Source: Alphaproteobacteria bacterium
GTDB lineage: Bacteria; Pseudomonadota; Alphaproteobacteria; UBA828
Direction: 5' to 3'
Length of the DNA: 64,000 nt
Assembly: GCA_963422645.2 (NCBI GenBank)
Contig: CAXXVO010000004.1
Span: 384,001 to 448,000 of the forward strand
The translations under genes and the position numbers were made by a program. This document shows, in pieces, positions 43,339 through 64,000 of this stretch; positions within the stretch are counted from its first letter, which is position 1, and each line of letters starts with the position of its first letter. The notes beneath the pieces are model-generated. The model saw nothing but the letters and a program-made list of their open reading frames with translations. It was not told the origin of the DNA and did not search any database.

Positions 43339-43341
43339 GGC

Positions 43342-44298: not shown

Positions 44299-44586
44299 TC
44301 TGCGGGCTACCAGAAATATCCAGCGCCAATCAGCGTTCCAAATGACAATAACCCACTGATAAAACGAAATTTCTTTCATTCAGTGCAGGCTGTCCGAATT
44401 CACTCCCAAGATTTGCGGAAGCAATCCGTAACCGGAGTTGGCTGTCTCGCCGTCACCTCCTGCCAGCCATGCCGGTAAGCGTTCCGGCGTAACCGTTCGG
44501 GTTCCGTAATCGTTCGTTCGGGCCGTGGAGACGCTATCTGCTTGATGCCTAGCTTTGGCGTGCCCTGGATGGCGTTGGCTGGGATT

Positions 44587-44762
44587 CTAGCGGTTTAGGG
44601 TGCGCTGCCAATCCCTTCTGAGGGGCCGGAGCCAGACGTCCTTGCAGGGTTTGTTTTGGAGCTTGCCGCGGTCGTAGCGTCCGCCCGACCCGTATCCAGC
44701 CTGATGCCCGGTAGACGGCTCCGGTGTAGCGCGGGGTCTCGACAAAGGTCTCCACGAACGTC
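44587..44762 (-). pseudogene. 3' part of a DUF4338 (DruA-like) gene
   Basis: TFVETFVETPRYTGAVYRASGW, then after a frameshift GRYDR...KDVWLRPLRRDWQRTLNR*. Confidence 0.8.
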
Positions 44763-45207
44763 ACAGACTACTATCTTGCAGGCTTCCGAGGCTCCTGAGC
44801 CCGTTCGCATTCGACGCTACAAGCATCCTTTCGACGGTGAGGCGATCGAGATTCTCGATCGGCGCAAAGGAGGTTACGGGGGCCGGACTCTGAAGGTTCG
44901 GATGCCGGACGGCAGCTGTTGTTGGATACCAGCGGCATGGACGAGCCTTGGAGCCCGTCCCGAGGATGCACCACGCCTGATCGGAGAGTTGTCTGATTTC
45001 CTCACCCTCCTTAATCTTCTGAATGACCTTGATGAGAGGGAACTCAGGCGCGATGGATGCGGAGCAGGAGTTGGCGCTGATCGCGCTGATGGAGTGGGAG
45101 GAGCGCCGGGACCGGTGGCTGGCGTTTCCGGCTCCGGACCGGGATCGCGTCGTGCAGGGTCTGGCCGATCTGATGGTTCGGATTGCGGATCGGGAGGCGG
45201 CCGATGA
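44761..45207 (+). CDS. Start-less body of a small accessory protein (DUF5372 / Y4bD-like)
   Basis: HPFDG...DGS..WIPAAWT motif; no convincing start inside the left end; stop overlaps the recombinase ATG (ATGA 45204-45207). Confidence 0.7.
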   Translation, partial: SQTTILQASEAPEPVRIRRYKHPFDGEAIEILDRRKGGYGGRTLKVRMPDGSCCWIPAAWTSLGARPEDAPRLIGELSDFLTLLNLLNDLDERELRRDGCGAGVGADRADGVGGAPGPVAGVSGSGPGSRRAGSGRSDGSDCGSGGGR

Positions 45208-45244
45208 CGGTCGATCCGTCGAAGATCACCCAGCGTCATCTTGA
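45053..45244 (+). CDS. Small overlapping hypothetical protein (63 aa)
   Basis: MDAEQELALI...W.AFP..DR..VV..LA.L; identical in copy 2 (57806-57997). Confidence 0.45.
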   Translation: MDAEQELALIALMEWEERRDRWLAFPAPDRDRVVQGLADLMVRIADREAADDGRSVEDHPASS

Positions 45245-47386
45245 GCGTCTTGCAGTTGTCTACGTTCGCCAGTCGACACCCTTGCAAGTGAACGCGCACC
45301 AGGAATCGCAGCTGCGCCAATACGCGCTTGGCGAGCGTGCCCGGGAGATTGGCTGGCCGGCCGAGCGGATACGGACGATCGACGCCGATCTTGGCGAGAG
45401 CGCAAGCGAGAAGGCGCGCGGCGAGCGTGGCGGCTTTCGGGAGATGTGCGACCTGATCGCCCGGGACCATGTCGGGGGCATCTTCGGGATTGAGGTTTCG
45501 CGGCTCGCCAGGAACACGATGGAATGGTTTCAGCTTCTCGATCTATGTCGCAGGCACGACACGGTTCTGGTTGAGGACTGCCACATCTACTGCCCGAGCC
45601 GGGACGACGACTCCCTTGTCCTGGGGATCAAGGGAACCGTGAGCGCCGCTGAGCTGTCTCTTATTCGCGCCCGGATGGAGGGCGGAAAGCGGAACAAGGC
45701 GCTTCGTGGCGAGTTGTACTCGCGCGTTCCGATCGGATTTGTGCGGGATGGCTCGACTTTGCGGAAGGATCCGGATGCCCGGGTTCAGGCGGCGATTGCA
45801 ACGGTCTTTGCGCGTTTTCGGCAAGCCGGTTCGGCCCGCCAGGCGACGATGCTGCTGCGTGAGGCGGGCGAGGATGTTCCCTCTCGCCGGCACCCGGGGG
45901 CAGCATTGGAATGGGGCCCGGCGCGCTATGAACGGGTGTACCGCATCCTCACCAACCCGGCGATGGGCGGCGCCTATGCCTACGGCTTCAAACGCGGCGT
46001 TGGTCACGGTGCGCCGCTGCGGCCGGTCCAGGAGCGCTGGGATATTCTTCAGCCGGAGAAGCATGAGGGATATGTCAGTTGGGCAGAATGGCTTGAAGTA
46101 CAGGAGCAGCTGGCCCGCAACCACATGGCTCCGGACGGAGCCCGCGGCGCGGCGCGGGAAGGGTCGGCTCTGCTCCAGGGTCTCGCGGTCTGCGGCGGCT
46201 GCGGATTGCCGATGACCGTCTACTACAGCAAGACGGGCTGGGGGTATGAGTGCCGCAAGCGCGATGCTGCGCGCCGGCGCGGCGGTTGTTGGTCGACAGG
46301 CGGCAAGCGCGTTGATGCGGAAGTTGCCCGTCTGTTTCTCGATGCGGTCACGCCGGCGGGGGTGGAGGCGGCCCGGCAGGCGGCTTGTGATGTTGCTGAA
46401 CGCGGCCTGCGCGCGTTGCGCCGTTGGGAGCTGGATCTTGAGCACTGCCGGTACGAGGCGCGGCTTGCCGAGCGGCGCTACAAGCAGGTCGATCCCGACA
46501 ACCGTCTGATTGCGGCAACGCTGGAGCGCGAGTGGGAGAAGGCGCTTCGCGCCGAGAAGGCTGCACAGGAAGCGCTTGAGGCGGCACGGGCGCGTCAGCC
46601 CGCGGCCCCTGCCCCGGCGCGGTTTTCGAGGGTCTCGGCGCGCGCCTGTCGCAGGTCTGGGGGGCGTCGTCGACGACCATGCGCGAGCGCAAGCGCCTGC
46701 TCGCCTGCCTCCTCGACGAGGTGACGATCGAGCTTGCGCGACAGGAGCGTGAGATCATGGCAACATTGCGCTGGCGTGGCGGGCAGATCGACGAGATCAC
46801 TTTGCCGATGCTCGCGGGCTCTCCGACACCCCGGCGCGATGAGCGCAGCACGGTCGAGCTCGTGCGCAAGCTGTCATGCTTTTACAACGACCGGGAGACC
46901 GCGAAGGTTCTCACCCGCCAGGGACGGCGCACAGCACGGGGTCTGGATTTCACGGCCGAGCTTGTTGGCAGCCTGCGTCGCCGCCATGGCATTGCGCCCT
47001 ACCAGCCCGACGGGGACGAGCCGGTGCTCATGGGCGTTGCCGATGTGGCGAAGGAGATCGGAGTCTCGGATGACACCATCTATCGCTGGATCCGCGAGGG
47101 GCTGGTTCCGGTTGCCCAGCCCGATATCGAAGGTGCTCCTCTTCGGATCCGGATGACCCCGACCTTGCGCGAGCGCTTTCGTGAGGCGCCTCCGGAGGGG
47201 TTTGTTCCCCTCGCTGTGGCAATGGATCGTCTGGGTGTCACGCGGCAGACGGTCTGGGAACGGATCAAGGCGGGCAGGCTGGACAGCTGCCATGTGACCC
47301 GCGGCAAGACGCGCGGACTGTATGTGCGTTTGCCGGTCGAGGACGAACTGCCGCTGCTGCGCGGGCTCAACGGTGATGGGGGGTGA
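45204..47386 (+). pseudogene. Large serine recombinase with C-terminal HTH domains, copy 1, 2-bp frameshift near 46620
   Basis: YVRQST catalytic Ser, EVSRLARN, Zn ribbon CGGCG, coiled coil, two HTH; extra GC versus copy 2 (real or sequencing error). Confidence 0.9.
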
Positions 47387-47575
47387 CCATGCCCGGACCG
47401 TCAGGCAAAACGCCCGATGCAGATCCGCACCTCCAACGTGCGATACTGGAAAATCACGTCCGGCACGATGTAAAGGTCGCCGCGGCGGCAACAACGGAAT
47501 CCAAACCGCCTTTTCTATCAATGCGGTAGAAACGCCCGCCCACCTGCACAACGGAGAAGCATTATGAAGCCTTCA

Positions 47576-48005
47576 TCTCGATGAGCACCGGGGTGATGTT
47601 GTAGCGCTCGGTCCAGTCCCCGGGCAGGCGGCAGCGGACGATGGCGAGGATGTGTGAGCCGAGGTTGGGGATCTCGATCCAGGGCAGGATCAGGAACCGC
47701 GGGTTGTCGACCACCAGGGGGAGGTTCTTCTCGCGCTTCTCGGGCGTCCATCCAATGAACCTGTAGCGCGGTGCAAGCCTCCAGGCGGCGGTGGAGAAGC
47801 CGAGCATGGTCAGCGGCCAGCCGTTTCGGTCGTAGACGGCGTAGCGCATCTGGGCGCCGACCAGGGTCTTGAAGCCGAGATAGTGGTAGCGGGCGACGAA
47901 CTCGTTCCACAGCCTGCCGTCGCGGGTCTCGCGCACGACGGGGCGCATCTCCAGCGGGCGGACCTCGGCGAGGGTGGTCGGGGCCGGGAACAACGGCGGT
48001 CTCGT
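47576..48005 (-). pseudogene. Middle part of DUF4338 gene (allele A), 5'-truncated
   Basis: LWNEFVARYHYLG, RFLILPW, NLGSHIL, ERYNITPVLIE ending at the element boundary. Confidence 0.85.
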
Positions 48006-48140
48006 CTTCTCAGAGAGCGCCAAGGCTGAGGTGGCCCGGGAAAATCGGACAGGTCGCTAAGTGTCTGGCCTGGAATGAATTGATTGATTTCAGTGTGTTG
48101 TGATTCACTGTTTGTGTCCAAGCAATCAGCGAGGCACGAC

Positions 48141-48674
48141 ATGTGGACTGAAATCACTCGCCTGAAGTATGAGCGCAAGGGGTTGCGTTATGGAAGCGAC
48201 CTGACGGATGCAGAGTGGGCCGTTCTCAAGCCCTTGCTGCCCCCGGCCCGAGTTCTGGGGCGCCCGCGGACGACGGACCTGCGCGAGGTCGTGAATGCGA
48301 TCCTGTATGTGCTGCGCAGCGTTTGTCCGTGGCGACTGCTGCCGAAGCACTTTCCGCCGCGTTCGACGGTGCAGCGCTATTTCTACGCTTGGCGCGATGA
48401 CGGGCTCTGGCAACGGATCAACCGCACCCTGCTGACGGCGACACGCGTGGCCGAGGGCCGACAGGCCGGCATCATCGACAGCCAATCGGTCAAGACCACC
48501 GAAAGCGGCGGCCCACGGGGCTTCGACGCGGGCAAGAAGGTCAAGGGCCGCAAGCGCCACATCCTGACCGACACCGGCGGCCTGCTGGTCACCGCCCGGG
48601 TCCATGCCGCCGATATCCAGGACGGCGACGGTGCTCCGGCCGTGCTTGCCGGCGTCTGCGACGGCTTCCCCCGG
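48141..48674 (+). pseudogene. IS5-family transposase, truncated
   Basis: YGSDLTDAEW, WRLLP, IIDSQSVK, DAGKKVKGRKRH; cut by an IS21-like end at 48675. Confidence 0.88.
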
Positions 48675-48708
48675 TGTTGATCGGCGTGGAATATTGACCC
48701 CCTATTGG
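48675..48708 (+). repeat. Orphan IS21-like left end
   Basis: TGTTGATCGGCGTGGAATATTGACCCCCTATTGG resembles the IS21 end at 52285. Confidence 0.7.
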
Positions 48709-49378
48709 ACCGGGCCCGCCGACCTGTGCGGGCCCCCAAGAACGCCCACGAACGCGTTCAGCCCGGCGACGTCATGCCCGCCGGCGAGCGCCCGGTCTGC
48801 AACGCCTCCGCAATGTTCCAGGAGGCCCCCCAGGTCCCTCCAGCCCGCCCCGGCCACTATCCGCTCGACATGGCAATCCCGCGCGCCTTCCAGCGCGCCC
48901 TCGTGGCCCTCGCCAACATCTCCGCCTCGATCGCCAACGTCGCGGAGTACACCGTCGCCTTCGATCCCGCCATCGCCGCAGACAACATGCGCCGCGACGC
49001 CGCGGCCGGCCTCGAGAAAGCCGCCGCGCGCTACGACAACCGTACCTCCTGACCGTCGGAGCCATCCATGCACCTGACCGACATCCACATCGACGAAATC
49101 GTCAAGATCGACAATCTCCCATGCAACGCCGTCGGACGCGCCACCTTCTCCAACGCACGCCAGTACCGCCAGCCGAATTCTTCCGGCAGCCCAACGCCAC
49201 AAACGGGCACTGACATGCTGCCGGCTGTTGGAGATCCAGTTCCTGCGCAGGAAGTACGTCAGGGACAACCGCATCAAGCTACGGGACAGCAATACCGGGG
49301 GCCGGATCGGCCCGCTTAAGCCCGACACTCGTGCGGTTCTCGACGGCTTTCGCCGCCAAAAGTACAAGCCTCCGTCCC

Positions 49379-52284
49379 CTAGCGTTCCAAGGCAATGTGA
49401 AATCGCCTCGCGCGGTCCCTGAACGCTTCCTCTCCACCTTCCAGGATGTCGCACACGACCTTGCGGATTTCCGCCTCGTCCAGGCCGCCGCTCCTGTACG
49501 TGATGGCCGGAAGACCCTCCGCCGACTGAGGGCCGACATGTGCGACAATAATCTGGTCCGCATCGGTGTTGACCACAAGGTTCGCGTTATGCGTAACAAT
49601 GATGACCTGCCGCTTCTTCTTGGCCTCCTCGAACAACGGCACCAGCTCGTCGAAAATGGACTTCGGATCGAGATTCTCTTCGGGTTGGTCGATAATCAAC
49701 GGTCGGTCATCGGCATCGTCGAGCGCAAGGTAGAGAAGCACCAGAACTATTCCCCGCGTGCCAGGTGACAGTTTTTGTATCTCGATTCCATCGTACTTGA
49801 TGCCATACTTGAGGGAAATGTGGCTTGTACTGTACAGCCATTGCGCGAAACGCCTCGACCAGGGTCGATATTTCAACCGGTCTGTACGCGGGTACGGGGC
49901 CTTTTCGAGAAGCGCCTCCTGATGCTTCTCCTGAAACGCATTCATGGCCTTGGAAACCGCAGCAGAATCACCCTCCCGCCAAGCGTCCCTCAGCATCCGG
50001 TTCGCTTCCTTCTCAAGTGAGCCTATGCCCTTGAACGGGCCTCCCCTGAGGTCGAACAGCTCATCTTCACCCTGCTTTGCCCACGTACCCACGTCGGCCA
50101 CCCTGGAGACAGAGAACGAGAGCTTCCCCAGCGTACCGCCGGCTTCCCGCAGGCGCCGGATCAGCGGACCGTACAACTCGTTGAGCACGCGCTCTTCCGC
50201 AAGCAGGGCATCGAAGACGCGAACGTAACCGTCCGCCCGCTCCGCAACGAGGCTCCTCGCCCTGTCATGCGCCCTCTTGCAATCTGCGAGCCTTTCTTTC
50301 AGTCCGGCAAGCTCATTTCCTTCTTCGGCGATCCGTTTGGAGACGGCAGCAACCTTGCGCGCGCTTTCCCTGTCCGCTGCGACCAGTTTTTCCATCCTCT
50401 CGATCTCTGCTTCGAGGACGCCGAGCGGGGTCCTCGCAAGATTGGCACCTTTGGGAAGGAACGTCCCGCTGGCATCCACTGCAACAGAAGGCTTCTCCCC
50501 TTTCCATGCCTTCGTGCTCTTCTCCACTTCCTCGGACTTCGCCGCTACGACCCCATCGACATCACCCACGTATTCGAGAAGAAAACGCCCCCACTCGCCC
50601 TCATCGAGAGAAAGATTCCTATAGTTCTCCCTCATGCCCCGCAGCATCTCGGGTGCCCGATTCTGTCTCAGGTCCCTGATTTCGTTCCTGACCCCGACGA
50701 TAGATGCCCTTCGATTGCCGAGCTTCCTTAGGTGGCCGCGTACCCGTTCGGCAGCGGCGATCAGTTCCCGGAGCCGCTCGCCCGTCTTCTTCCCATCTTT
50801 GGGCAACAAGGCCGTGCGATCCTTCTCGTAGCGCGCAATCAGCTTCTCTTTCGCGGCGATCTTCGCCTCCAGCGGTTTGACCTCACGCGTCTTCTCCATC
50901 TCGATGCCGATCTGGTCAGAAATGTTCGCCAGCGCCACCTCTTCCCGGACCCGCGCATCGCGATGGCCTCCCGCCCGCAGTTCAAGGAGCTCGCCGAAGT
51001 CGACCGCGCCGTCGCGTTCGAGTGACGGGTGCGCTTCGAAGATAACCCGCTCGATTTCCGCGATTAGTGTGGGCATGCCCTCTATGGAGCAGAGATCCTC
51101 CACGAATTGCTGCGACAGATACCTAGCACGGGGATAGGCGTCCGCTGAACTATCCACGGGTGCGTCGAGCGGCTGCGCTTGCGAAAGCTCGCCACTCGAC
51201 CATTTCACAACAACACTTGATTCCGACAGATGTTCCCTCGCCCGCGCAAGGAAGGACGGATTCTCCTCCGACTCCATGTACGAGCTGCAACCAGCCGCGA
51301 TCATGTCCACCAGCGCAGTCTTGCCCGATCCCCGCCCACCAATGACCGCCGTCAAGCCCGCATTCAGCTCCACAACGGGTGTCATGACCCACGACGCGTT
51401 TTCGACACGCACCTCGTCGATGATCTGGGAACCCGCCGACCATGACGGCGGGGCCGAACCGACGTACGCACGTTCCGGCACGCGACACGCGTGGCGGAAC
51501 GTATCGAAGGACGCTCGCCCCTTTATCCAGCAATACCGGTCTTCCGCGGGCTTGGCGACGCGCTCCAGACCATGCGCATCGCTGCCCCAAAGACACGGCT
51601 TCGGGCCGCGATATCTCTCCTGAAGTTCGGCCACACTCGCCGCCCCGCTCCCAAGCCAGAAATCCCTCTGCCTCAAACTCGAGGCAAAGATGGCGTGCGC
51701 GGCCTTTTCGATTTCTTCTCGCAGTGTCGTATCGGCCGCATCCCTCACGCCCGAAGTGCCATCCGCGCTTCCGGCGACCGCGATAATGATGTTTTCCTGG
51801 GCCCAGTCGATGCTGCGGTACATGTCGAGCAGATTGTCAAGCGATACCTTGAACTGCGTGACGCCGTGTTTCAGCGCAGCTTCTTCGCTGATATCGCCAC
51901 CGCGCGCGCGCCTCCCCAGCCGCGCCAGCTCGGAGGGTGTACATGCGAACTTGTCGTCAAAAGCGGAGAACCAGAGCCGACCCAGAAATCGGTTCAATTC
52001 GTCCACGTGATTCGGGTCCTCCGGACTGACAAGGAGGTGAATGTTGACAAAATTTCCCTTTACGGTCCCAGTGTTGAGTCGCAGCTCAATATTGGGAAAG
52101 AGCAGGTCGCATTCTTTCAGCCGACCCTTTGCTTTCTCCTCACACATGCGCTCGTAGGATCTCGTGATACAATAATCCGTAATCCCGATCGCCTGCAGCA
52201 CAGGCGACGCCGCTTCGACGGCATCGAGGTACAATTTCCAGCCATTTTCCTTGGGGAAGTTGTCCCCCAACACCGTCCCTGGCG
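49379..52284 (-). pseudogene. PHP-domain plus SMC/ABC-type ATPase (TrlF/Ppl-like), N-terminus removed by IS21
   Basis: IGITDY, NIELR, NIH, GSDAH; GGRGSGKT, LSPG, IIDQPEENLD, VTHNAN; begins abruptly at TPGT against the IS end; codon style differs from core genes. Confidence 0.82.
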
Positions 52285-52403
52285 TGTTGTTAAGCGTGGA
52301 AAAGTGACCCCCTATTGGGGGTGATCGGCGTCCAAAATTGACCCCCTTGGATTTGTGTCCATGAACACACCTCGTCGTTTGGACGGACGGGGTGGTGGGG
52401 GAG

Positions 52404-53918
52404 ATGCTGGTTGTGGAAACGATCGCGAAGATCCGTCGGGATCATCTGGTGAAGGGCGTTCCGATCAAGAAGCTCGCCCGGGATTTGAGGGTTTCCAAGA
52501 ACACGATACGCAAGGTGGTGCGGGGCGATGCGACCTCGCACAGCTACGAGCGCAAGATCCAGCCGATGCCGAAGCTTGGGCTGTGGGTGGAGGAGCTTGA
52601 GCGCCAGCTGAAGGCCAACGAGAAGAAGGCACGCAAGGATCGGCTGTCTCTTCTGCGGATTCATGAAGACCTTGTGTCGCTGGGCTACAAGGGCGGCTAT
52701 GACGCGGTTCGCCGCTATGCCAGGGCCTGGCGGCGCCGGTGGCGGCTGTTGTCGCCGGCGCAGGCCTATGTGCCGCTGATCTTCGATCCCGGCGAGGCCT
52801 ACCAGTTCGACTGGAGCCACGAGTACGCGCGTCTGTCGGGCGCGACGACCAGGGTGAAGGCGGCGCACATGCGGCTGTGCCACAGCCGGATGTATCTGGT
52901 CCAGATCTTTCCCCGCGAGAGCCAGGAGATGGTCTTCGAGGCGCACGAGCGTGCCTTCCGCTTCTTCGGCGGGGTCTGCCGGCGGGGCATCTACGACAAC
53001 ATGAAGACGGCGGTGAGCACGATCTTCGTGGGCAAGAAGCGGGACTACAACCGCCGCTTCCAGGAGCTGTGCTCGCACCATCTGGTGGAGCCTGTGGCGT
53101 GCACGCCAGGGGCTGGCTGGGAGAAGGGGCAGGTCGAGAAGCAGGTGGGTGACCTTCGCGGCCGCCTGTTCGTGCCCATCCCGCGGGGCCGCTCCTACGC
53201 CGAGATCAACGAGTGGCTGATGGATCGGTGCATCGAGGACGCCAAGAAGCATCCGCATCCGACAATCCCGGGCAAGACGGTGTGGCAGGTGTTCGAGGAG
53301 GAGCAGCCCTTCCTGATGGCGTATCGCGGCCCCTTCGACGGCTTCCATGCCAGCGAGGTGTCGGTCTCGAAGACCTGTCTGGTGCGCTTCGACAACAACC
53401 AGTACAGCGTCGCGGCCCGCGCCGTCGGCCGGCCGGTGGACGTGCGGGCCTATGCCGATCGGATCGTCATCCGCCAGGACGGCGAGACCGTTGCCGAGCA
53501 CCCCCGCAGCTTCGGGCGCGGCCGGTTCGTCTACGATCCGTGGCATTACGTGCCGATCCTGACGCGGAAGCCCGGCGCGCTACGCAATGGCGCGCCCTTC
53601 AAGGACTGGCAGTTGCCCAACGCGCTCGGCCGCCTGCGAACCCGGCTCGCGGGCCACGACGACGGCGACCGGCAGTTCGTCAAGGTGCTCGCGGCGGTGC
53701 TGGAGGACGGACTGGAGGCGGTTGAGGCGGCCTGTGCCGAGACGCTCGACTGCGGTGCCTGCAGCGCCGACGTGGTGCTCAACATCCTCGCCCGGCAGCG
53801 CCAGCCGGCACCGCCGGCAATCATCCCGACGCCCGAGGGCCTGCAGCTTCGCCACAAGCCGGTAGCCGACTGTCAGCGCTACGACAGCCTGAGGGAGGCC
53901 GGTCATGGAGCGTCATGA
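52404..53918 (+). CDS. istA: IS21 transposase
   Basis: N-terminal [21 protein letters not shown]. Confidence 0.95.
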
Positions 53919-54633
53919 TGTGCTGGAGATGATGACCCAGCTGAAGCTCGCAGGTATGCGCGCCGCTTACGACGACATCCTTGCCGACGGGCTCAAGCGC
54001 CGCCATCCGGTGCAACAGATCATCGGTACGCTGCTGCAGGTCGAGATCGCCGACAAGAGGGCCCGCTCGATCAAGTACCAGATGGCCTCCGCCAAGCTGC
54101 CGACGGTCAAGGAGCTGGCCGACTTCGACTTCGCCGCCTCGCCGGTCAACGAGCCCCTGATCCAGGAGCTCGCCGGCGGCGGCTTCCTCGAGGGCAAACG
54201 CAACATCGTGCTGGTCGGCGGCACCGGTACCGGCAAGACCCATCTCGCCGTCGCCATCGCGCGGTCCTGCATCCGCAAGGGCGCGCGCGGCCGGTGCTAC
54301 AACGTCGTCGACCTGGTCAACCTCCTCGAGGCCGAGCTTCGCGCCGGACGCCAGGGCCGCACTGCAGACCAGCTCGTCCGCCGCGACTTCGTCATCCTCG
54401 ACGAGCTCGGCTACCTGCCCTTCGCCCAGGCCGGTGGGCAGCTGCTCTTCCATCTGATGAGCCGGCTCTACGAGCGCACCTCGATCGTCATCACCACAAA
54501 CCTCGCCTTCGGCGAATGGCCATCCGTCTTCGGCGACCCCAAGATGACCACAGCGCTGCTCGATCGCCTCACCCATCATTGCGAGATCATCGAGACCGGC
54601 AACGAGAGCTGGCGCTTCAAGAACCGCTCCTGA
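53905..54633 (+). CDS. istB: IS21 helper ATPase
   Basis: [22 protein letters not shown]. Confidence 0.95.
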
Positions 54634-54965
54634 CCCGCCGCCGGCCTCCCTTGCGGCCCGGTTGCCCCGGTGGGCCAACAGGGACCCCCCACGCGGCTTC
54701 GCTCCGCGTAGCGCAGGGCGCCACACGAAGCCGCGCGGGTCCCCCCTATTGGCTACCGGGACAACCTCCGCCGTGCCACTCAGGGGGGTCAATTTTGCAC
54801 GCCGATCGGGGGTCAGTATTGAAAGCCGATTGACAGGCTGTTCTGGGCAGCGTGCCGGGAACTCCTTGAATTCTGATACATTTCGGTTGTTTCAGGCGGT
54901 TTTTCGCTGGGTGTCGCGCCCGAGGTCTGATAGTATAATTTGATACCAATTGCACGGTCTCAACC

Positions 54966-57324
54966 ATGCCCAGTACCCTCCCAATGTGCCCTCCAGAGGC
55001 GGTCTCGATCGGCAACAGCTGCTTCGCCGTCCTGATCTCGGACGACACCTTCACCTACTTTTCCAACCTCATTCCCTTTGACAGCCACGCCGCCGATGAC
55101 CGCACGGCCATGCTCTTGCGGATCGGCCGCCTCGCGGCGATCAGCGCGGTCTCGCCGCAGGAACTGGCTGACGCTTTCGCTGTCTCGCGCGCGACGGTGC
55201 AGCGCGCACGACGGCGCTACCTGGCCGAGGGCGAAGCGGGGTTCATGAAGCCCCGGCGCGGTCGCGGGCCGTCGGTGTTCACTCCGGAGTTGGCGGAGAA
55301 GGCGACGGCGTTGCTGGCATCGGGCCTGAGCGGCTCTGCGGCGGCCCGGGTTCTCGGCGTGTCAGCGCCATCGGTCAACAAGTGGCGCCGTCAGGGACTG
55401 ATCGGCAACACGGAGGCGGATGGGGAGCCCGGACGCTCAGCGCTGGCTGCGCCGCCTGACGCGGGTGCGGCTCCTGAAGGCCGTGTCGATGAAGAGAGTA
55501 CCGGTGCCCCGGGGCCGGAGACGGCGCCGGGGCTGGAAGCGCAGCCGCAAACGGATCGCAGCGCGCGCGATCGGCGGGACCGGCAGGCGCCGATGGGGCG
55601 TGCGACTTGCGATGTTCCGGCTCGGGTTCTGGCCAGTTGTGGACAGGCGGGGCCGGTCGAACCGCAGTTCGCCGCCGCCGCCCGCGGTGTCCGCTTCGGC
55701 GGCGTGCTCGCCGCCCTGCCGGCCCTGCTGAAGGAAGGTCTTCTCTCCGAGACCGGTCTCCTGCCATTGCTGCCGAAGGGCTATTACGGCTTGCCTACGA
55801 TCCTGCTCTTCCTGGCCTTCATGACCTTGGCGCGGGTGCGCAACCCCGAGAGCCTGCGCTACCAGGCGCCGGGCGAATGGGGCGCCATTCTCGGCCTCGA
55901 TCGCTGCCCCGAGGTCAAGACGCTGCGCCGCAAGATCGCTCTCATCGCCGACGACGAGGCCGGCGTGCGGGCGTGGCAGCTCGCCCTTGCCAGGCGCTGG
56001 CAAGGCCGACGAGCCGGAGCTCTGGGCGACGCTGGCCATCGACGGGCACGTCAAGGTCTACTCCGGCCGCAAGGGGCGCTTGCCCAAGCACTTCGTCTCG
56101 CGCGAGAAGCTGTGCCTGCCGGCGAGCGCCAGCTACTGGATCAACGCTCTGGGCGGCAAGCCGCTGCTCTGTCTGCACAAGCCGCTGGACCCGAAGATGG
56201 TCGCGGCCATCGAAGCCGACGTGGTGCCGGCGCTGCAGGAGCTTGGGATCGTTGGCGCCGGGGCGCCGGACCTGACCGCCGAGCATCCCGGCCAGCCGGC
56301 GCTCACCCTGGTCTTCGACCGCGAGGGCTGGAGCCCGGATCTGTTCCGCCGGCTGGCGAGGCGCGGCGTCGCCTGCCTGACCTGGCACAAGAACTTCAGG
56401 GGCGAGGACTGGCCGGCCGAGGACTTCGGCGCGATGACCGTTCCCATTCACGGACCGGCGGCGGACGGCAGCGCCACCATGCGGCTGGCTGAGAAGCCGG
56501 TGACGTTGCCGAACGGCTTCAGGGTGCGCCAGATCCGCCGCCTGCTCGACAACGGCCGTCAGGTGCCGCTGATCACCACCGATCCGCACAAGCCGATGGC
56601 TGAGGTTGCGGGCGCCATGTTCTCGCGCTGGTCGCAGGAGAACTTCTTCAAGTACATGCGTGACGAGTTCAATCTCGACGCCCTGCCGACCCACGAGCTC
56701 GAGCCTCTCGATCCCGCCGCCATGGTCGTCAACCCGCTGCGGCGGGCCTATGACAAGGCAATCCATCGCCTCGACCGCCAGCTTGGCCGCCTGCGCAACC
56801 GCATCGCCGACACGGCCCGGAAGAAGCAGCCGACGGCGGAACTCAGGAGGGAAGTCAGGGACCTCCAGGATGTCCGCGACATCGTCAGGGCCAGCCGCAG
56901 GGAGACGCCCAAGCACTGCCGGGCCGGCGACCTCGACGAAGCCGAGCAGCTCGATGCCTTGCCCGCGCGCGAGCGCCTCCTCCTCGACGTCATCCGGATG
57001 ATCGCCTACCGCGCCGAAACCCGCATGATGCTTCCCGTCATGCAGGCGCAGGGCCACAAGCCCCATCCCCGGAAACTGCTTCAAGCGCTGCTCACCGCCG
57101 ATGCCGACATCCTGCCGGATCCTGGCAATGGCCTCCTGCGGGTCCACATTCTTGGCCTCGCAAACGACGCCTGCGACCGTTGGATCGATGCGGTTCTGAG
57201 CGACCTGAACGCCACCGAAACGGTCTTCCCCGGCACCCGTCTGCGCATAGTCTACGACATCGACGGGGCCTCGGAATCCGCGCGGCTCGTGTCACCTAAA
57301 ATCAGCAGAGGTCAGGAAGTCTGA
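54966..57324 (+). mobile_element. Unclassified HTH-DDE putative transposase, frameshift near 56004
   Basis: Two HTH-like segments, IDGHVKVY, VFDREG, RWSQENFFK; ends GQEV*; abuts an IS66 fragment. Confidence 0.72.
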
Positions 57325-57761
57325 ACCTCGCGCGCCGCCTTCAAAAGCATAAGGAGGGCTGCCTGCGCTTCCTCACCGACCTGCGCACGCCGTTCACGAA
57401 TAACGAGGCGGAGCGTGACATCCGTATGAACAAAGTGCATGAGAAGATCTCAGGCGGCTTCCGCTCCCTGCAAGGCGCCTGCAACTTCGCCGGAATGCGC
57501 AGCGTCATCGTCACCGCTCGAAAGCAAGGCTGGAACATCCTGCAAATCCTGGCGCACCCGGAACCGATGCAGCTGATCCCTATACTGCGCTCCTGAACTT
57601 CTCCGGCTCATCCTGAGTATCGCTGTCCTCTCATCTTGTTCGCGACGCGGCGTTCATCATCCTCTCGCGCTCAAGAGAGTAGGCACCCCCGCGGCGTGGG
57701 GGCGTTGACGCAAAAGGAACTGGCTTGTTCCATAAGAGAGAGGGGGTACCTGGGCAGTTAC
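57324..57761 (+). mobile_element. 3' remnant of a second, divergent IS66-family element
   Basis: NLARRL...FTNNEAERDIRM.KV..KISGGFRS (stop 57594-57596); right TIR CCTGGGCAGTTAC ending 57761. Confidence 0.85.
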
Positions 57762-58110
57762 CCTTAATCTTCTGAATGACCTTGATGAGAGGGAACTCAG
57801 GCGCGATGGATGCGGAGCAGGAGTTGGCGCTGATCGCGCTGATGGAGTGGGAGGAGCGCCGGGACCGGTGGCTGGCGTTTCCGGCTCCGGACCGGGATCG
57901 CGTCGTGCAGGGTCTGGCCGATCTGATGGTTCGGATTGCGGATCGGGAGGCGGCCGATGACGGTCGATCCGTCGAAGATCACCCAGCGTCATCTTGAGCG
58001 TCTTGCAGTTGTCGTAACTGCCCAGGTCGTCTGATTTGTCATTTTGGGCCAGTGGATTGAGGCGTTTCTCGTTCGGAGTTGGTGGAAAGGGCTTGACGGG
58101 AATTTCGGGA

Positions 58111-59161
58111 ACCGCTTATGCACATGGCTCCGGTCGCGAGAGTTTGCCACCAGATGTTGAGGTTGAGGTTAGGGCGGGAGAACGGGTAGAATGTTGCCTA
58201 TACGTTCCTGCCGACGGAGCCACCACATGAAACAGGTCGCCGACAGCCTCCTCGCCTTCCAGCACATGTTCCCGGACGATGACGCCTGCGCCGCCTGGCT
58301 GATCGAAATGCGCTGGCCGGACGGCTTCGTCTGTCCCGCGTGCGGCCATGAAAAGGGATGGGCGCTGCGCAGAAAAGCACACACCTTCGAGTGCGCCGGC
58401 TGCCGCCGGCAGACCTCGGTGACGGCCGGGACGATCCTGCACGCCAGCAAGCTGCCGCTCACCGTCTGGTTCTGGGCCGCCTACCTGATGGCGACCCACT
58501 CCAACGGCATCTCTGCCCTGCAGCTCCAGAAACAGCTCGGTATCGGCTCTTACCGCAGCGCTTGGCTGCTCGCCCACAAGCTGCGCGCCAGCATGGTCGA
58601 CCCCGAGCGCAACCCGTTGTCGGGCCTGGTGGAAATCGACGAGGCCAGCCTTCCATTCCGGACCAAAGACGATCCTCCCACCGGAGGGCAAGGACGCAGC
58701 CACGACGGCAAGATGCTCATCGTCGGCGCCATCGAACTGGGGGATGGAACCATCCCGGGCCGCCTGCGGCTGGCCGAAATCTCCTCCTACGGCGCCGCCG
58801 ACCTCGGACACTTCGTCGAAACCGCCGCCGATCCCGACGCCATCGCGAAAACCGACGGCTGGTCCGGCTACGCTGCGGTCCCCGCCGATCGCCACAATGT
58901 CCATGTCGTCGGGAAGACCGCCGCTCACCTCGTCCTGCCGTGGATCCACCAAGTCTTCTCCAACCTCAAAGGATGGGCGCGAGGCGTCTACCACGGGCTG
59001 CGCCGCAAGCATCTGCAGGCCTATCTCGATGAGTTCGCCTTTCGCTTCAACCGCCGCAAAACCCGCCACGCTGCTTTCCGCTCGCTCTTCCGCATCGCCA
59101 CCAATGCAAAACCCCTTACCTACAGCATGTTGATCGAACCGGAGCCATGTGCATAAGCGGT
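58111..59161 (+). mobile_element. IS1595-family element, 1051 bp, inside the IS66 leader
   Basis: 24-bp TIR ACCGCTTATGCACATGGCTCCGGT; 8-bp duplication TTTCGGGA at 58103-58110 and 59162-59169. Confidence 0.93.
58227..59156 (+). CDS. IS1595-family transposase
   Basis: RWPDGFVCPACG Zn ribbon, VEIDE, TDGWSGY, YLDEFAFRFNRR. Confidence 0.93.
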   Translation: MKQVADSLLAFQHMFPDDDACAAWLIEMRWPDGFVCPACGHEKGWALRRKAHTFECAGCRRQTSVTAGTILHASKLPLTVWFWAAYLMATHSNGISALQLQKQLGIGSYRSAWLLAHKLRASMVDPERNPLSGLVEIDEASLPFRTKDDPPTGGQGRSHDGKMLIVGAIELGDGTIPGRLRLAEISSYGAADLGHFVETAADPDAIAKTDGWSGYAAVPADRHNVHVVGKTAAHLVLPWIHQVFSNLKGWARGVYHGLRRKHLQAYLDEFAFRFNRRKTRHAAFRSLFRIATNAKPLTYSMLIEPEPCA

Positions 59162-59186
59162 TTTCGGGAAATGACTCAACAACGAC

Positions 59187-60693
59187 ATGAGCAATCCCGA
59201 GTCGCCGCGCGGCCCTTCGACGGGAGCAGCGCCCGAAACGCCCGCGCAGAAGATCGCCCGCCTGGAGGAGGAGAACGCCCGGCTTCGGGAGGAAAATGCC
59301 TGGCTTCGGCAGCAGAACGCGCGGCTGGAAGAGCAAGTCGCGCGTCTCGTCGAGCGCATCGAGGAGTTGGAGCGCCGTCTCGGCCTCAACAGCGGCAACA
59401 GCGGCAAGCCGCCTTCGAGCGATGGGCTGAGGAAGCCGAATTCGAAGCGGCGAACCCGAAGCCTGCGCGGCAAATCGGGCCGCAAGCCCGGTGGCCAGCC
59501 CGGCCACAAGGGCAAGACGCTGCGCCGCGCCGATCACCCGGATCGGGTGAAGGATCACGTCCCGGCTTCCTGCAAGGGATGCGGTTCGCCGCTTTCGGAC
59601 GCGGCCAGGGCGGGAACGCCCGTCGCCCGCCAGGTGTTCGATCTGCCCGAGCCGAGCCCCCTGGAGGTGACCGAGCACCGGGCGCATGCCAAGTGCTGCG
59701 GGCATTGCGGGACGGTGACCCGGGCGGCGTTCCCCGACGGGGTGTCGGCGCCGGTGCAGTACGGCCCGCGCATTGCCGGGGTGGCGGTCTACCTTCAGCA
59801 CGCTCACTTCCTGCCGGAGGATCGGCTGTCGCAGGTGATGGCCGAGCTCTTCGGCGCGCCGGTGACGGCTGCGACGTTGGCGACGATGAGCGAGAGGGCG
59901 GCCGAGCGGCTTGCGGGACGCGGCCTTGCACATACAGGACCTGGCGGCGGGCACGGCGCGGGTGAAACACATGGACGAGACCGGCTTGCGGATCGGCGGT
60001 CAGACGCAGTGGCTTCATGTGATCTGCACGCCGCTGCTGGCGGCGTACCGGGTCAGCGGCAAGCGCGGCGCCCTGCTCTCGGGTGTCTCCGGCATCGTCG
60101 TGCACGATCACTGGAAGCCGTACTTCGCGATGGAAGGGGTGGAGCACGGCCTGTGCAACGCCCATCACCTGCGGGAGTTGCAGGCGCTGGTGGACATCGA
60201 AGGGGAGGCTTGGGCCCGGCGGATGCAGCAGCTCCTGCGCCGAGCCAATCGCGCCGCCCGCATCGCGCTGGACAAGGATATCGCCGTTCCGGCGAGGCTT
60301 GTGGCGCTGATCGAGCGCCGATACGACGAGATCATCGCCGATGCGCTGGCCTTTCACGAGAGCCAACCACCGTTCTCGCCTGGCAAGAGGAAGAAGCGCC
60401 GGAAGCGAAGGATCGGTCACAATCTGGCCTTGAGGCTGCGCGACCACAAATGCGCGGTGCTCCGGTTCCTGATCGACCTCGAGGTCGGGTTCACGAACAA
60501 CGAGGCCGAGCGCGACCTTCGGATGATGAAGCTGCGCCAGAAGATCTCCGGGGGCTTCCGGTCCGCGCAGGGGGCCGAGAACTTCGCCATCCTGCGCAGC
60601 GTCATCACCACCGCCAGAAAGCAGGGCTGGAATATCATCGAAGCCCTGACCAGCCCATCGGATCGGCTCATCGCCACCGTCAAGTGCGCGTAA
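59187..60693 (+). pseudogene. IS66 transposase copy 2, +1 frameshift at ~59911
   Basis: Extra T relative to copy 1 (CGGCTTGCGG vs CGGCTGCGG). Confidence 0.88.
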
Positions 60694-63282
60694 GCTCACC
60701 TGGCACGGGTTCTCCAACAGCGGAGCCATTCTCATAAACGATCATGGTCGACGCCGTGCTGGACCACCCCATAGAATGAAAATCGGTGCCCGTCGCGCGG
60801 GCGGACTTCGGGCCACATCGGGGTAGCTTACCGGTCGCAGTCCGCAAGAGGGGCATCGTGAGCTGTGAAACCCGGCGACCACAGAGGAGCACACGGGCGT
60901 CGCGTGGGTAGCGTTGTGCCGAATCCCAGAGAATTTTCACAGCAAGAACCTGGGCAGTTACCAGTTGTCTACGTTCGCCAGTCGACACCCTTGCAAGTGA
61001 ACGCGCACCAGGAATCGCAGCTGCGCCAATACGCGCTTGGCGAGCGTGCCCGGGAGATTGGCTGGCCGGCCGAGCGGATACGGACGATCGACGCCGATCT
61101 TGGCGAGAGCGCAAGCGAGAAGGCGCGCGGCGAGCGTGGCGGCTTTCGGGAGATGTGCGACCTGATCGCCCGGGACCATGTCGGGGGCATCTTCGGGATT
61201 GAGGTTTCGCGGCTCGCCAGGAACACGATGGAATGGTTTCAGCTTCTCGATCTATGTCGCAGGCACGACACGGTTCTGGTTGAGGACTGCCACATCTACT
61301 GCCCGAGCCGGGACGACGACTCCCTTGTCCTGGGGATCAAGGGAACCGTGAGCGCCGCTGAGCTGTCTTTTATTCGCGCCCGGATGGAGGGCGGAAAGCG
61401 GAACAAGGCGCTTCGTGGCGAGTTGTACTCGCGCGTTCCGATCGGATTTGTGCGGGATGGCTCGACTTTGCGGAAGGATCCGGATGCCCGGGTTCAGGCG
61501 GCGATTGCAACGGTCTTTGCGCGTTTTCGGCAAGCCGGTTCGGCCCGCCAGGCGACGATGCTGCTGCGTGAGGCGGGCGAGGATGTTCCCTCTCGCCGGC
61601 ACCCGGGGGCAGCATTGGAATGGGGCCCGGCGCGCTATGAACGGGTGTACCGCATCCTCACCAACCCGGCGATGGGCGGCGCCTATGCCTACGGCTTCAA
61701 ACGCGGCGTTGGTCACGGTGCGCCGCTGCGGCCGGTCCAGGAGCGCTGGGATATTCTTCAGCCGGAGAAGCATGAGGGATATGTCAGTTGGGCAGAATGG
61801 CTTGAAGTACAGGAGCAGCTGGCCCGCAACCACATGGCTCCGGACGGAGCCCGCGGCGCGGCGCGGGAAGGGTCGGCTCTGCTCCAGGGTCTCGCGGTCT
61901 GCGGCGGCTGCGGATTGCCGATGACCGTCTACTACAGCAAGACGGGCTGGGGGTATGAGTGCCGCAAGCGCGATGCTGCGCGCCGGCGCGGCGGTTGTTG
62001 GTCGACAGGCGGCAAGCGCGTTGATGCGGAAGTTGCCCGTCTGTTTCTCGATGCGGTCACGCCGGCGGGGGTGGAGGCGGCCCGGCAGGCGGCTTGTGAT
62101 GTTGCTGAACGCGGCCTGCGCGCGTTGCGCCGTTGGGAGCTGGATCTTGAGCACTGCCGGTACGAGGCGCGGCTTGCCGAGCGGCGCTACAAGCAGGTCG
62201 ATCCCGACAACCGTCTGATTGCGGCAACGCTGGAGCGCGAGTGGGAGAAGGCGCTTCGCGCCGAGAAGGCTGCACAGGAAGCGCTTGAGGCGGCACGGGC
62301 GCGTCAGCCCGCGGCCCCTGCCCCGGCGGTTTTCGAGGGTCTCGGCGCGCGCCTGTCGCAGGTCTGGGGGGCGTCGTCGACGACCATGCGCGAGCGCAAG
62401 CGCCTGCTCGCCTGCCTCCTCGACGAGGTGACGATCGAGCTTGCGCGACAGGAGCGTGAGATCATGGCAACATTGCGCTGGCGTGGCGGGCAGATCGACG
62501 AGATCACTTTGCCGATGCTCGCGGGCTCTCCGACACCCCGGCGCGATGAGCGCAGCACGGTCGAGCTCGTGCGCAAGCTGTCATGCTTTTACAACGACCG
62601 GGAGACCGCGAAGGTTCTCACCCGCCAGGGACGGCGCACAGCACGGGGTCTGGATTTCACGGCCGAGCTTGTTGGCAGCCTGCGTCGCCGCCATGGCATT
62701 GCGCCCTACCAGCCCGACGGGGACGAGCCGGTGCTCATGGGCGTTGCCGATGTGGCGAAGGAGATCGGAGTCTCGGATGACACCATCTATCGCTGGATCC
62801 GCGAGGGGCTGGTTCCGGTTGCCCAGCCCGATATCGAAGGTGCTCCTCTTCGGATCCGGATGACCCCGACCTTGCGCGAGCGCTTTCGTGAGGCGCCTCC
62901 GGAGGGGTTTGTTCCCCTCGCTGTGGCAATGGATCGTCTGGGTGTCACGCGGCAGACGGTCTGGGAACGGATCAAGGCGGGCAGGCTGGACAGCTGCCAT
63001 GTGACCCGCGGCAAGACGCGCGGACTGTATGTGCGTTTGCCGGTCGAGGACGAACTGCCGCTGCTGCGCGGGCTCAACGGTGATGGGGGGTGACCATGCC
63101 CGGACCGTCAGGCAAAACGCCCGATGCAGATCCGCACCTCCAACGTGCGATACTGGAAAATCACGTCCGGCACGATGTAAAGGTCGCCGCGGCGGCAACA
63201 ACGGAATCCAAACCGCCTTTTCTATCAATGCGGTAGAAACGCCCGCCCACCTGCACAACGGAGAAGCATTATGAAGCCTTCA

Positions 63283-63742
63283 TCTCGATGAGCACCGGGG
63301 TGATGTTGTAGCGCTCGGTCCAGTCGTCGGGCAGGCGGCGGCGGACGAGGGCGAGGATGTGCGAGCCCAGGTTGGGGATGGTGATCCAGGGCAGGATCAG
63401 GAACCTCGGATTGTCGACGACGAGCGGGAGGTTCTTCTCGCGCGATCGTGGCGTCCAGCCGATGAAGTTGTCGCGCGGAGCGAGCTTCCATGCGGCGGTT
63501 GAGAAGCCGAGCATGGCGATGGGCCAGCCGTTTCGGTCGTGGACGGCGTAGAGCATCTGGGCGCCGACGAGGGTCTTGTAACCGAGATAGTGGTAACGGG
63601 CGACGAACTCGTTCCACAACCTGCCCTCGCGGGTCTCGCGGACGACGGGGCGCAGGTCGATCGGGCGAACCTCGTCGAGGGTTGTCGGGGCCGGAAGCAG
63701 CGGCGGCTCGGTGTCCGGCCCGAAGACGACTGGCTTTGGCCG
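63283..63742 (-). pseudogene. DUF4338 gene, allele B, interrupted at the same codon
   Basis: KPVVFGPDTEPP...WNEFVARYHYLG...ERYNITPVLIE; many substitutions versus allele A. Confidence 0.85.
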
Positions 63743-64000
63743 GTGACCTCGTCATACTGTCGGCGTATGGTCTCCTTGTGCCTCTCCGACGCCTGCTCCT
63801 CGCGGGCCAGCCGCTTCCCCAGACGGGCGACCTCCCTGTTCAGCCGGGTCACCTCCTTGCGCAGCTCGCCTCGTTCCGCGCGTAGCGACTCGATCGTGGC
63901 CTTCTGGTTCTCCGCTCGCTCCAGGGTCGCACGCAGCCGGCGCCCCTCCCTGCCCGCCGTTGAGGTCGGCCTGCGCTTGGCCTGCTCGATGCTGGCTTCG
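63743..64000 (-). pseudogene. Coiled-coil coding fragment joined out of frame to the DUF4338 fragment
   Basis: Heptad-like RLRATLERAENQKATIESLRAERGELRKEVTRLNREV; runs off the window. Confidence 0.45.

Follow-up and report, generated by a model that had tools for sequence, protein, structure and literature searches.

Introduction

Serine integrases that interrupt genes, and that restore them on excision, are known from SPbeta, skin and the fdxN element. Homing endonuclease genes, inteins and group II introns occupy conserved motifs, which often belong to other mobile elements. IS607 transposases are small, carry an N-terminal helix-turn-helix (HTH) and show minimal target specificity. Here, we describe an integrase-only element of about 2.83 kb, two copies of which lie in a 64,000-nucleotide stretch of an alphaproteobacterial genome (the window, G000:C5:384001-448000; the source genome, G000, comprises 5.9 Mb in 23 contigs). 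The element splits DUF4338 genes, which are carried by insertion sequences (ISs), at a single codon. Comparison of its copies supports repeated, independent integration of this integrase-only element at a conserved attB within the transposon-borne DUF4338 gene.

The integrases of SPbeta (SprA/SprB; spsM), skin (SpoIVCA; sigK) and the fdxN element (XisF) have the same domain order as the integrase described here (catalytic, recombinase, zinc ribbon), and XisF is the best NCBIfam match of the latter, at a score far under the cut-off. The element further resembles gene-interrupting phage integrases in its insertion within an open reading frame (ORF), its dissimilar attP and attB, its tiny overlap and its small neighboring ORF, whose product is here a predicted binder of the integrase. 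It differs from SPbeta, skin and fdxN in that it has no cargo (2.8 kb, versus 20 to 130 kb), is present as 11 copies and a fragment rather than singly, and targets a mobile-element gene rather than a host developmental gene. The integrase also has an extra C-terminal region of ~200 residues with an excisionase-type HTH, and it is accompanied by a DUF5372-like partner ORF; both set it apart from those three systems.

With homing elements, the element shares a site in the coding sequence of a conserved motif, where the target is hard to mutate away and where insertion into selfish DNA is cheap for the host. It differs from them in that it would move by conservative serine recombination, without double-strand-break repair or reverse splicing. 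With IS607 and Tn4451/Tn5397 (TnpX/TndX), it has in common a compact build and a serine recombinase as the sole mobility enzyme. According to a report on streptococcal integrative and conjugative elements (ICEs), triplets of serine integrases insert these into traG of other ICEs, with direct repeats of 2 to 8 bp (PMC4701971). The ICEs are alike in that a serine integrase inserts them, site-specifically, into a conserved gene that belongs to another mobile element, but they come from Firmicutes, are large and conjugative and have three integrases each, whereas the present element is integrase-only, occurs in Alphaproteobacteria and Acidobacteriota and targets ISs. A full-text literature search yielded no description of a cargo-free, multicopy large serine recombinase (LSR) element in IS, relaxase or intron genes, although the supplementary target tables of one LSR survey (PMC10083194), which lay outside that search, might list transposase or reverse-transcriptase domains among LSR targets. 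DUF5372 went unmentioned in the same search, and its mentions of DUF4338 were unrelated to such elements.

Results

Copies in the source genome

A preliminary description of the window, made from the sequence, had proposed that two nearly identical copies of an element interrupt two diverged DUF4338 genes at the same codon, VLIE^TFVET (the caret marks the point of insertion), and had suggested that all copies be tabulated with their flanks. This tabulation was carried out by a BLAST search of the element with 200-bp flanks against the 23 contigs. It returned 11 copies in which a right junction is present, plus a left-end fragment, spread over seven contigs (C3, C5, C6, C8, C10, C13 and C14), along with places where both flanks directly adjoin. 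The proposed site was borne out genome-wide: a single Glu-Thr codon pair of DUF4338 (VL[IV]E^TFV) is the site of all 11 right and all 10 left junctions, and no copy in the genome was found at any unrelated site.

The copies themselves are almost uniform. When seven full copies were aligned, the sole difference was one 2-bp insertion or deletion (indel), and the sole difference among eight integrase ORFs was one C-to-A change. The ORF is intact, at 726 aa, in six copies, among them one at C5:335695-337872, so the repair of the recombinase from the two window copies that had been envisaged was not needed. The targets, by contrast, fall into two classes, A and B, whose proteins are 35-46% identical and whose DNA differs as soon as the overlap ends (TCTC^GATGAG versus TCTC^CACCAG). 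Even the class-A right flanks differ among themselves by 9-23% over 230 bp. Empty sites are present for both classes, and three intact class-A sites give attB directly.

In the window, the two copies were compared by self-comparison and MAFFT alignment. Positions 45253-48004 match 60962-63710, and 45009-45260 match 57762-58013 at 100%. Between 45253 and 47618, copies 1 and 2 are distinguished by a single substitution, at 45660, and a single 2-bp indel, the GC at 46617-18; over 47619-48004, there are 57 differing columns in the alignment (~13-15% divergence). The contrast between near-identical elements and diverged targets was therefore well drawn, with identity dropping sharply to ~13% divergence from 47619. 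Both right ends read ...GAAGCCTTCATC^TCGATGAGCACC, with TC at 47576-77 and 63283-84, as had been reported, and the flanking gene ends in VLIE. The estimate of a minimal element of ~2.8 kb also stands, one period being 2827 bp in copy 1 and 2825 bp in the intact copies.

Junctions and attachment sites

All right junctions in the source genome read ...GCCTTCATC followed by TCGATGAGCAC (class A) or TCCACCAGAACC (class B), and all left junctions read GA(C/A)(G/A)AAGGTCTC (class A) or CCACGAAGGTCTCCA (class B) followed by C(A)CGAACGTCACAGACTACTATC. Because the three empty class-A sites read GACGAAGGTCTCGATGAGCAC, the string CACGAACG belongs to the element, and the true left junction of copy 1 is GGTCTC^CACGAACGTCACAG, at 44752/44753. 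The preliminary description was right that the left flank of copy 1 holds the 3' part of a DUF4338 gene, but the empty sites show that its junction was 12 bp off and that the overlap is TCTC rather than TC. Since the element starts after GGTCTC, the attB that it gave (GGTCTCCACGAACG-TC-TCGATGAGCACC) includes element sequence; the attachment sites are readable, as it had held, but both its attB and its attP strings are wrong on the left side. The reading TFVE-TFVET at attL comes about because the element end mimics the target.

The overlap between attL and attR is TCTC (4 bp) in class A and TCTCCAC (7 bp) in class B, and it amounts to 6 bp and 2 bp, respectively, in L039 and L040, two orthologous loci described below. 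This variation in length (2, 4, 6 and 7 bp) fits microhomology around a 2-bp core and not a target duplication of fixed length. No terminal inverted repeats were reported in the window self-comparison. All of the overlaps, although they lie in different targets, contain one common position, CT or TT. In L040, attL and attR have only CT in common, provided that the frame of the target gene is to be kept; CT lies within the TCTC of the source element, and the homologous TT lies within the TTTCCA of L039. Strand exchange would thereby take place at CT, and the crossover dinucleotide is likely CT at both ends (Table 1), which corresponds to the AG of the Glu codon GAG on the coding strand. The exchange had been assigned to TC; comparison of three orthologues puts the likely core one base to the right.

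Assembled contigs of all four public sequencing runs contained a joint from 44748 to 47576, which skips 2827 bases with four ambiguous letters and gives the same limits. One run (X5) also yielded a 2836-nt contig consisting of the element only (44745-47579), at a depth of 104, versus about 10-35 in bins of the left flank. By eye, the motif GA(A/T)G(C/G)(C/T) is found at -6..-1 in the left arm of attB and at -11..-6 in the left arm of attP, in three elements. Such a 5-bp outward shift in attP is a feature of serine-integrase half-sites.

Two further observations concern the left end of the element. Positions 44753-44764 repeat the TFVE of the target in different synonymous codons. The left end also gives an in-frame TAG..GTG, such that the downstream part of the gene forms a 503-aa ORF (MTFVETFVDPS..) with a DDE domain (L001 345-1856, minus strand). 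In-frame GTGs were seen by eye in L039 and L040 at other distances; a designed restart codon was considered as a possible reading.

The same codon in other genomes

Homologous loci were sought in one genome per species, and a later profile scan gave 80 loci. Two of the loci found are decayed copies with integrase remnants, from metagenome-assembled genomes (MAGs) of a Thalassobaculaceae bacterium (L005, 88% identical) and a Paracoccaceae bacterium (L006, 87%). Both end in ...GCCTTCATC and then run into a DUF4338 gene, at VLLAE^ in L005 and VLIE^ in L006, and their flanking sequences differ from each other. Two more distant orthologues split the gene at the same codon. L039, from an alphaproteobacterial MAG (integrase 61% identical), splits VLME^TFVQT, with attL GGACGAACG-TTTC-CACAACGG and attR CCAAAG-TTTC-CATCAGG, and L040, from a Bryobacterales MAG of the Acidobacteriota (integrase 59%), splits VLLAE^TFVDP, with attL GAAGGT-CT-GGACTTTCG and attR CTAGGC-CT-CGGCCAG. 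When a small purpose-built hidden Markov model (HMM) of DUF4338 was run against 115 loci (L005-L118, with L009 left out), the domain was split only in these four, at HMM positions 219-226. A metagenome scan returned 80 relatives, all of them at most 44% identical and none with DUF4338 in its flanks; the clade that targets DUF4338 gained no member from it.

The integrase and the small ORFs

In an intact copy (L001), the 726-aa ORF matches the Pfam families Resolvase (PF00239, E = 8.5e-17, residues 17-170) and Recombinase (PF07508, E = 2.4e-10) and, at its C terminus, an HTH_17/excisionase-type helix-turn-helix (4.9e-10). R22-Q23-S24 (in VYVRQST) is invariant in an alignment of the integrase with 20 homologues, as are Cys330, Cys333 and Cys362, and Cys350 is at least 90% conserved. 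A profile of the integrase matches structures of SPbeta SprA (E = 1.1e-15, residues 67-511). Judged by these domains, the protein is an LSR of the order catalytic, recombinase, zinc ribbon, with an extra C-terminal HTH extension. The dissimilar attP and attB, the nonpalindromic 2-bp core and the lack of a target duplication are, at the level of sequence only, those of an LSR. For the coiled-coil insert of the zinc ribbon, the sole indications are the SprA alignment, which extends to residue 511, and the predicted contacts of orf2 with residues 380-400 and 466-502.

Two small ORFs precede the integrase gene. The first, orf1, is conserved in the orthologues L039, L040, L041 and L043, and clear DUF5372-type ORFs lie upstream of distant relatives. 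The second, orf2, is conserved in all six aligned orthologues, with 13 invariant columns, and has a coding-like pattern of GC content at third codon positions (GC3). The Gly-rich tail of orf1 and the whole of orf2 are read from the same DNA (45053-45207) in two frames. Both frames are open in all five orthologues compared (the four just named and the source element, whose integrases are 50-100% identical), and the orf1 stop is always at the integrase start.

The complex of the integrase with orf2 was predicted from our own small alignments and scored 0.74, versus 0.00 for the best of three controls; 58 of 80 solved complexes attained this mark, as did 2 of 110 mismatched pairs. Agreement between runs covers at least 86% of contacts, with a partner pLDDT of at least 71. 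Predicted contacts of orf2 fall on integrase residues 380-400, 466-502 and 523-527, just past the zinc ribbon. This is the region in which directionality factors bind integrases. The prediction supports binding of orf2 to the integrase, and orf2 is a candidate recombination directionality factor (RDF).

The target genes

The class-B target is a 2475-bp IS, which lies empty in the window (Table 1). Its transposase contains Pfam DruA (DUF4338) followed by DDE_Tnp_1 and matches the IS4-family model NF033592 at 156.8 bits (cut-off, 115). Searches by tblastn and blastn recovered about a dozen empty copies as well as seven that are occupied, the split lying at residue 270-273 in each of the latter. 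Copies of this IS4-family element with an N-terminal DUF4338 occupy, besides the window, about 20 other places in the source genome.

In class A, DUF4338 stands alone, in a gene of about 290 aa. Its context is seen at locus L119 (G000:C13:250500-257500), where an intact 3.53-kb unit (2506-6037) is bounded by 134-nt inverted repeats that are 99% complementary. The class-A gene is the second gene of this unit, and the right repeat overlaps the 3' end of its ORF. The first gene, an 812-aa ORF with coding-like GC3 that was preferred over a longer ORF, encodes an IS66-family transposase (DDE_Tnp_IS66, 3.9e-58; NF033517, 288 bits versus a cut-off of 180). Fragments of this IS66 variant lie in the window at 44588-48023 and 63286-63751. 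A 704-aa ORF at 42265-44379, considered as an operon partner of DUF4338, is probably spurious, the real partner gene being on the other side.

Two unrelated IS families in one genome thus have DUF4338 as an accessory component, and the suggestion that the target gene travels on transposons proved correct, class A lying in an IS66-family element and class B in an IS4-family transposase. In one study, the domain is called a GNAT-like acetyltransferase domain (PMC10853773). The relation to Druantia that had been proposed extends to the shared Pfam DruA domain and no further, as the targets are IS genes. A reading of the target as a Druantia defense gene was rejected, given that IS context and the PADLOC results, in which class B had no DruA hit and class A had one that was weak and partial (2.6e-6). 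A third DUF4338 architecture, in which the domain is combined with Tnp_DNA_bind, was seen at L044, in the target of one of the distant relatives described below.

Features of the window and genome context

The coordinates of the element copies, their genes and their targets are collected in Table 1. The 3' part of the copy-1 target gene is matched by the class-A protein in two frames (tblastn) and aligns with the empty sites e10, e13 and e16; relative to other alleles, it lacks 14 bp near 44683. The 5' part ends in VLIE and then reads into the element (MKAS and a stop). Copy 2 is a remnant that lost its first ~250 bp and attL at 57761/57762, so that only the right junction remains, and a repeat with about 60 copies in the genome ends at 57761, adjoining the truncated left end. 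The IS66-family insertion that splits copy 2 is flanked by an 8-bp target duplication (58006-13 and 60962-69, copying 45253-60), holds a nested 1.05-kb insert (58112-59161) and matches, in two pieces, an IS at window positions 5129-7019. The class-A protein covers the second target allele over residues 123-278 at 89%, and this allele is ~13% diverged from the copy-1 flank.

Table 1. Positions of the element copies, their genes and their targets in the window
Feature	Coordinates	Strand	Basis or remark
3' part of class-A DUF4338 target gene of copy 1	44588..44749	-	Decayed; tblastn with intact class-A protein
Likely attL crossover dinucleotide, CT	44750..44751		Within TCTC overlap, 44749-44752
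Element copy 1	44752..47576	+	Genome BLAST; copies identical save 2-bp indel
orf1, DUF5372-like, TTG start proposed	44776..45207	+	Pfam DUF5372, E = 0.0022, under curated cut-off
orf2, 62 aa plus stop, overlaps integrase start	45053..45244	+	Candidate recombination directionality factor
Predicted large serine recombinase gene, 726 aa when intact	45204..47386	+	Frameshifted here by GC insertion, 46617-46618
Likely attR crossover dinucleotide, CT	47577..47578		Within TCTC overlap, 47576-47579
5' part of class-A DUF4338 gene of copy 1	47579..48023	-	Pfam DruA, 7.5e-29, profile positions 46-178/297
Copy 2, left piece	57762..58013	+	100% identical to 45009-45260
IS66-family insertion splitting copy 2 at integrase codon ~17	58014..60961		zf-IS66/DUF6444, NF033517
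Copy 2, right piece, remainder of integrase gene	60962..63283	+	attR core at 63284-63285
5' part of second class-A DUF4338 allele, target of copy 2	63286..63751	-	tblastn
Unoccupied class-B target, IS4-family IS	2151..4625	+	Empty attB Glu codon GAG at 3036-3038

The source genome is extraordinarily IS rich: a 1.9-kb, single-ORF IS66-family element gave ~100 hits, and a 2552-bp IS gave about 70. Examples of repeats and ISs in the window lie at 5129-7019, 53500-54836 and 57324-57761, and nested insertions are common. Between the two copies, a 964-aa ORF (49379-52273, minus strand) has AAA_21 (AbiEii-like) and SMC_N ATPase hits, and the adjoining ORFs of 418 and 323 aa gave no Pfam hit; this region may be a defense-type locus.

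Relatives and their targets

Of the 8000 candidates scored in a protein search, 4307 proteins reached E <= 0.001. Many of these, at 725-735 aa, share the domain content and come from contigs just 2.5-3.5 kb long, as would be expected of multicopy repeats. Homologues from ENA (P0002-P0030) are 56-80% identical to the integrase. Within the same genus, relatives 34-43% identical were found in 10 of 20 other genomes, often as three or four identical copies. Targets were read where the limits of an element could be set from two copies or where its flanks were readable.

Many of the targets so identified are enzymes of other mobile elements. An element in genome G005 (37% identical) lies in two diverged IS3-family transposases, both cut at (F/H)YN^..RPH, where NF033516 runs to 348-349/369 and rve_3 to 50-52/67. 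One in G020 splits a TrwC relaxase at profile position 151/153. L041 (57%) splits an ISAs1 transposase at HWGIEN^GLHW (NF033564 position 274-278/314), and L043 and L076 (50-51%) lie in IS1634 transposases at LVLY^DVSS, the former split at NF033559 position 135-136/483 and the latter identified by eye only. L047, L048, L046 and L113 (42-43%) interrupt group II intron reverse transcriptases, with RVT_1 split at ~77-84/205 and GIIM downstream. In L115, the target is an IS66 transposase, whose match stops at 269/284, near the C terminus. L044 (46%) lies in a DUF4338 plus Tnp_DNA_bind transposase, at a site read by eye as RWGIEEF^.

Not every lineage is strictly confined to mobile-element genes. 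L044 and L045, from one Bryobacterales MAG, are 100% identical 3379-bp copies in unrelated contexts, and L045 lies between DUF7133 and HEAT-repeat ORFs, an ordinary-looking context with no mobile-element gene. In a family search of flanks, L054/L095 gave no Pfam hit or CHAT/nSTAND, and L077/L079 and L117 gave none. No mobile-element gene was seen at L042, and at L030, whose flanks lay outside the family search, no clear ORF abuts the junction. For L031, the analysis covered the junction sequences and the ORF coordinates. In G008, G009b and G011, the copies have several kb in common, which masks the element limits. A 2.97-kb element (G009a; L026-L028, genome G009) lies at the center of an inverted repeat (ATTTATTGAAAC..ACTTCAGAG, element, AGAGTGTGAAAGTATTTCAATAAAT), a target that is noncoding and palindromic.

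About 9 of some 14 lineages examined, then, have at least one copy that interrupts a conserved motif in another mobile element's gene; the lineages were grouped informally rather than by formal clustering, the sample is small and nonrandom, and related lineages are not independent. With these numbers, we lean toward a large radiation of integrase-only mini-elements across phyla, each lineage of which would recognize the DNA of a conserved motif in an enzyme of another selfish element. We hold it somewhat likelier than the contrary, too, that the gene set of this putative radiation comprises a DUF5372-like ORF, a small RDF-like ORF and an LSR with a C-terminal HTH.

Discussion

We infer the recombination chemistry of the element from the positions of its copies, their likeness, their coding content and the genes that they interrupt. 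We envisage a minimal integrative element, about 2.83 kb long, in which the LSR is the sole sizeable gene, with two small conserved ORFs ahead of it. A circular form would carry attP (...GAAGCCTTCAT-CT-CCACGAACGTCACAG...), and the LSR would recombine this site with attB (plus strand, ...GACGAAGGT-CT-CGATGAGCAC..., i.e., VLIE^TFVE), with strand exchange at the 2-bp core, the AG of the Glu codon GAG. Insertion would split the gene of the host IS, with which the element could then travel; since DUF4338 is part of two insertion sequences, the element lands in other mobile elements. Precise excision by the LSR would restore the split gene, with orf2 as the candidate directionality factor. We judge it very probable that the LSR integrates attP into attB at a CT core within the Glu codon of DUF4338.

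That the integrations occurred independently is supported by the constancy of the site, the two diverged target classes, the empty sites and the use of the same codon in four other genomes. Duplication of one insertion, which the preliminary description had set against its own claim, cannot explain this pattern. When the seven occupied class-B ISs were aligned with 13 empty or partial copies of the same IS, they showed three haplotypes at positions 2835/2838/4459 (A-C-A, G-G-A and A-C-G), of which G-G-A and A-C-G are also found in empty copies. The occupied class-B ISs would thus not form one clade, for which this is modest evidence, as the single-nucleotide polymorphisms are few. The integrase allele with the GC insertion is common to copies c5a and c8a, which lie in two different class-A alleles, and the presence of broken-integrase copies in different targets suggests that the six intact copies mobilize them in trans or that gene conversion acts between copies.

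A number of observations weigh against repeated integration as we describe it. Copies c8b and c6a have identical flanks on both sides and so represent a duplicated locus, not two integrations. In six class-B copies, the flanks are identical across the 70-90 bp shown per side and the IS sequences almost so; these copies could have spread as IS plus passenger. The right flank of c8b and c6a (C8:597537 and C6:342643) is identical to class B for 50 bp and then continues as the class-A sequence of c8a, the switch falling in a 15-nt stretch in which classes A and B agree at 14 positions; from this chimera, homologous or homeologous recombination also moves sequence between occupied sites. Copies c8b (class A; C8:597731-599908) and c13 (class B; C13:39278-41455) have the same nonsense change, C1278A (Tyr426 to stop), whose presence in both classes gene conversion could also explain. 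As to the mechanism, the placement of the core at CT comes from a single orthologue, L040, where attB is a reconstruction, and takes the crossover position to be conserved. The zinc ribbon of the integrase (Zn_ribbon_recom, PF13408, E = 4.7e-5) scores 24.1 bits, just under the curated cut-off of 25.3. The contigs that skip the element could stem from paralogous empty sites and from the source sample; they therefore corroborate its limits but do not independently prove excision, and no attP ("go-back") joint was present in the assembled contigs of the four runs, which cannot show rare circles. Finally, SprA-SprB complexes (9dxd family) have been solved, and the score of orf2 may thus reflect likeness to these rather than this particular pair.

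The alternative that some of these observations favor is a single ancestral insertion, from which the later copies arose by transposition or duplication of the host IS, combined with homologous recombination or gene conversion among DUF4338 paralogues. The identical flanks of the six class-B copies, and of c8b and c6a on both sides, speak for it, as do the 50-bp class-B tract within a class-A flank and the recurrence of the same defects in copies lying in different targets, and such processes clearly contribute. Across classes, however, at most 11 bp are common on the left and 0-3 bp on the right, which leaves homologous exchange almost nothing to use. Three further class-A alleles, 9-23% apart, each hold a ~100% identical element, and the occupied class-B ISs carry three haplotypes, two of them shared with empty copies. 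For the orthologues in other phyla, with integrases 59-61% identical at the same codon, a single insertion fails because the element there has diverged as much as the target. We consider this alternative improbable.

Repeated integration at one site also has to be set against a low-specificity serine transposon of the IS607, TnpX or TndX type that lies in DUF4338 by chance or tolerance. The element is small, multicopy and moved by a serine recombinase, and its relative L044/L045 is identical in two unrelated contexts. Yet every one of the right and left junctions falls at one codon to the base, as do those in the four other genomes, and the domain order is that of an LSR. Membership in the IS607 family was rejected: NF033518 gives 22.7 bits against a cut-off of 110 and covers only the C-terminal HTH (residues 613-638), and the catalytic domain is N-terminal. 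A large survey of LSRs and their target genes separates site-specific clades from a multitargeting, TndX-like clade marked by DUF4368 (PMC10083194). Assignment of the integrase to a TndX/TnpX-like clade was rejected as well, as DUF4368 is not among the 13 Pfam families that matched at E <= 0.01 and the target is a single codon. A low-specificity transposon is, overall, very unlikely, and still less likely is an assembly artifact, in which a collapsed or misjoined repeat would have made false identical junctions, for despite the extreme repeat richness of the genome the copies lie on seven contigs with distinct unique flanks and distinct secondary IS insertions, contigs from the runs of other studies reproduce the element limits and the empty form, and the same junction is found in other genomes.

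Repeated, site-specific integration as proposed here would make a serine integrase the engine of a cargo-free, multicopy element aimed at a conserved motif of other mobile elements. The source genome supplies a matched attP, an attB in two diverged versions, attL and attR, together with a candidate directionality factor and a 726-aa integrase that is intact. Its relatives add other specificities, and such material could be useful input for the discovery of integrase tools of the kind treated in the LSR survey (PMC10083194). If the pattern holds family-wide, it would represent an unnoticed layer of conflict among mobile elements, in which IS transposases, relaxases and intron reverse transcriptases are knocked out; if, moreover, excision works, such a knockout would be reversible, which bears on the restraint of IS-rich genomes. 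These elements would then be hyperparasites that both disable and ride transposons, plasmids and introns, and would constitute a natural library of integrases whose att sites can be read from genomes.

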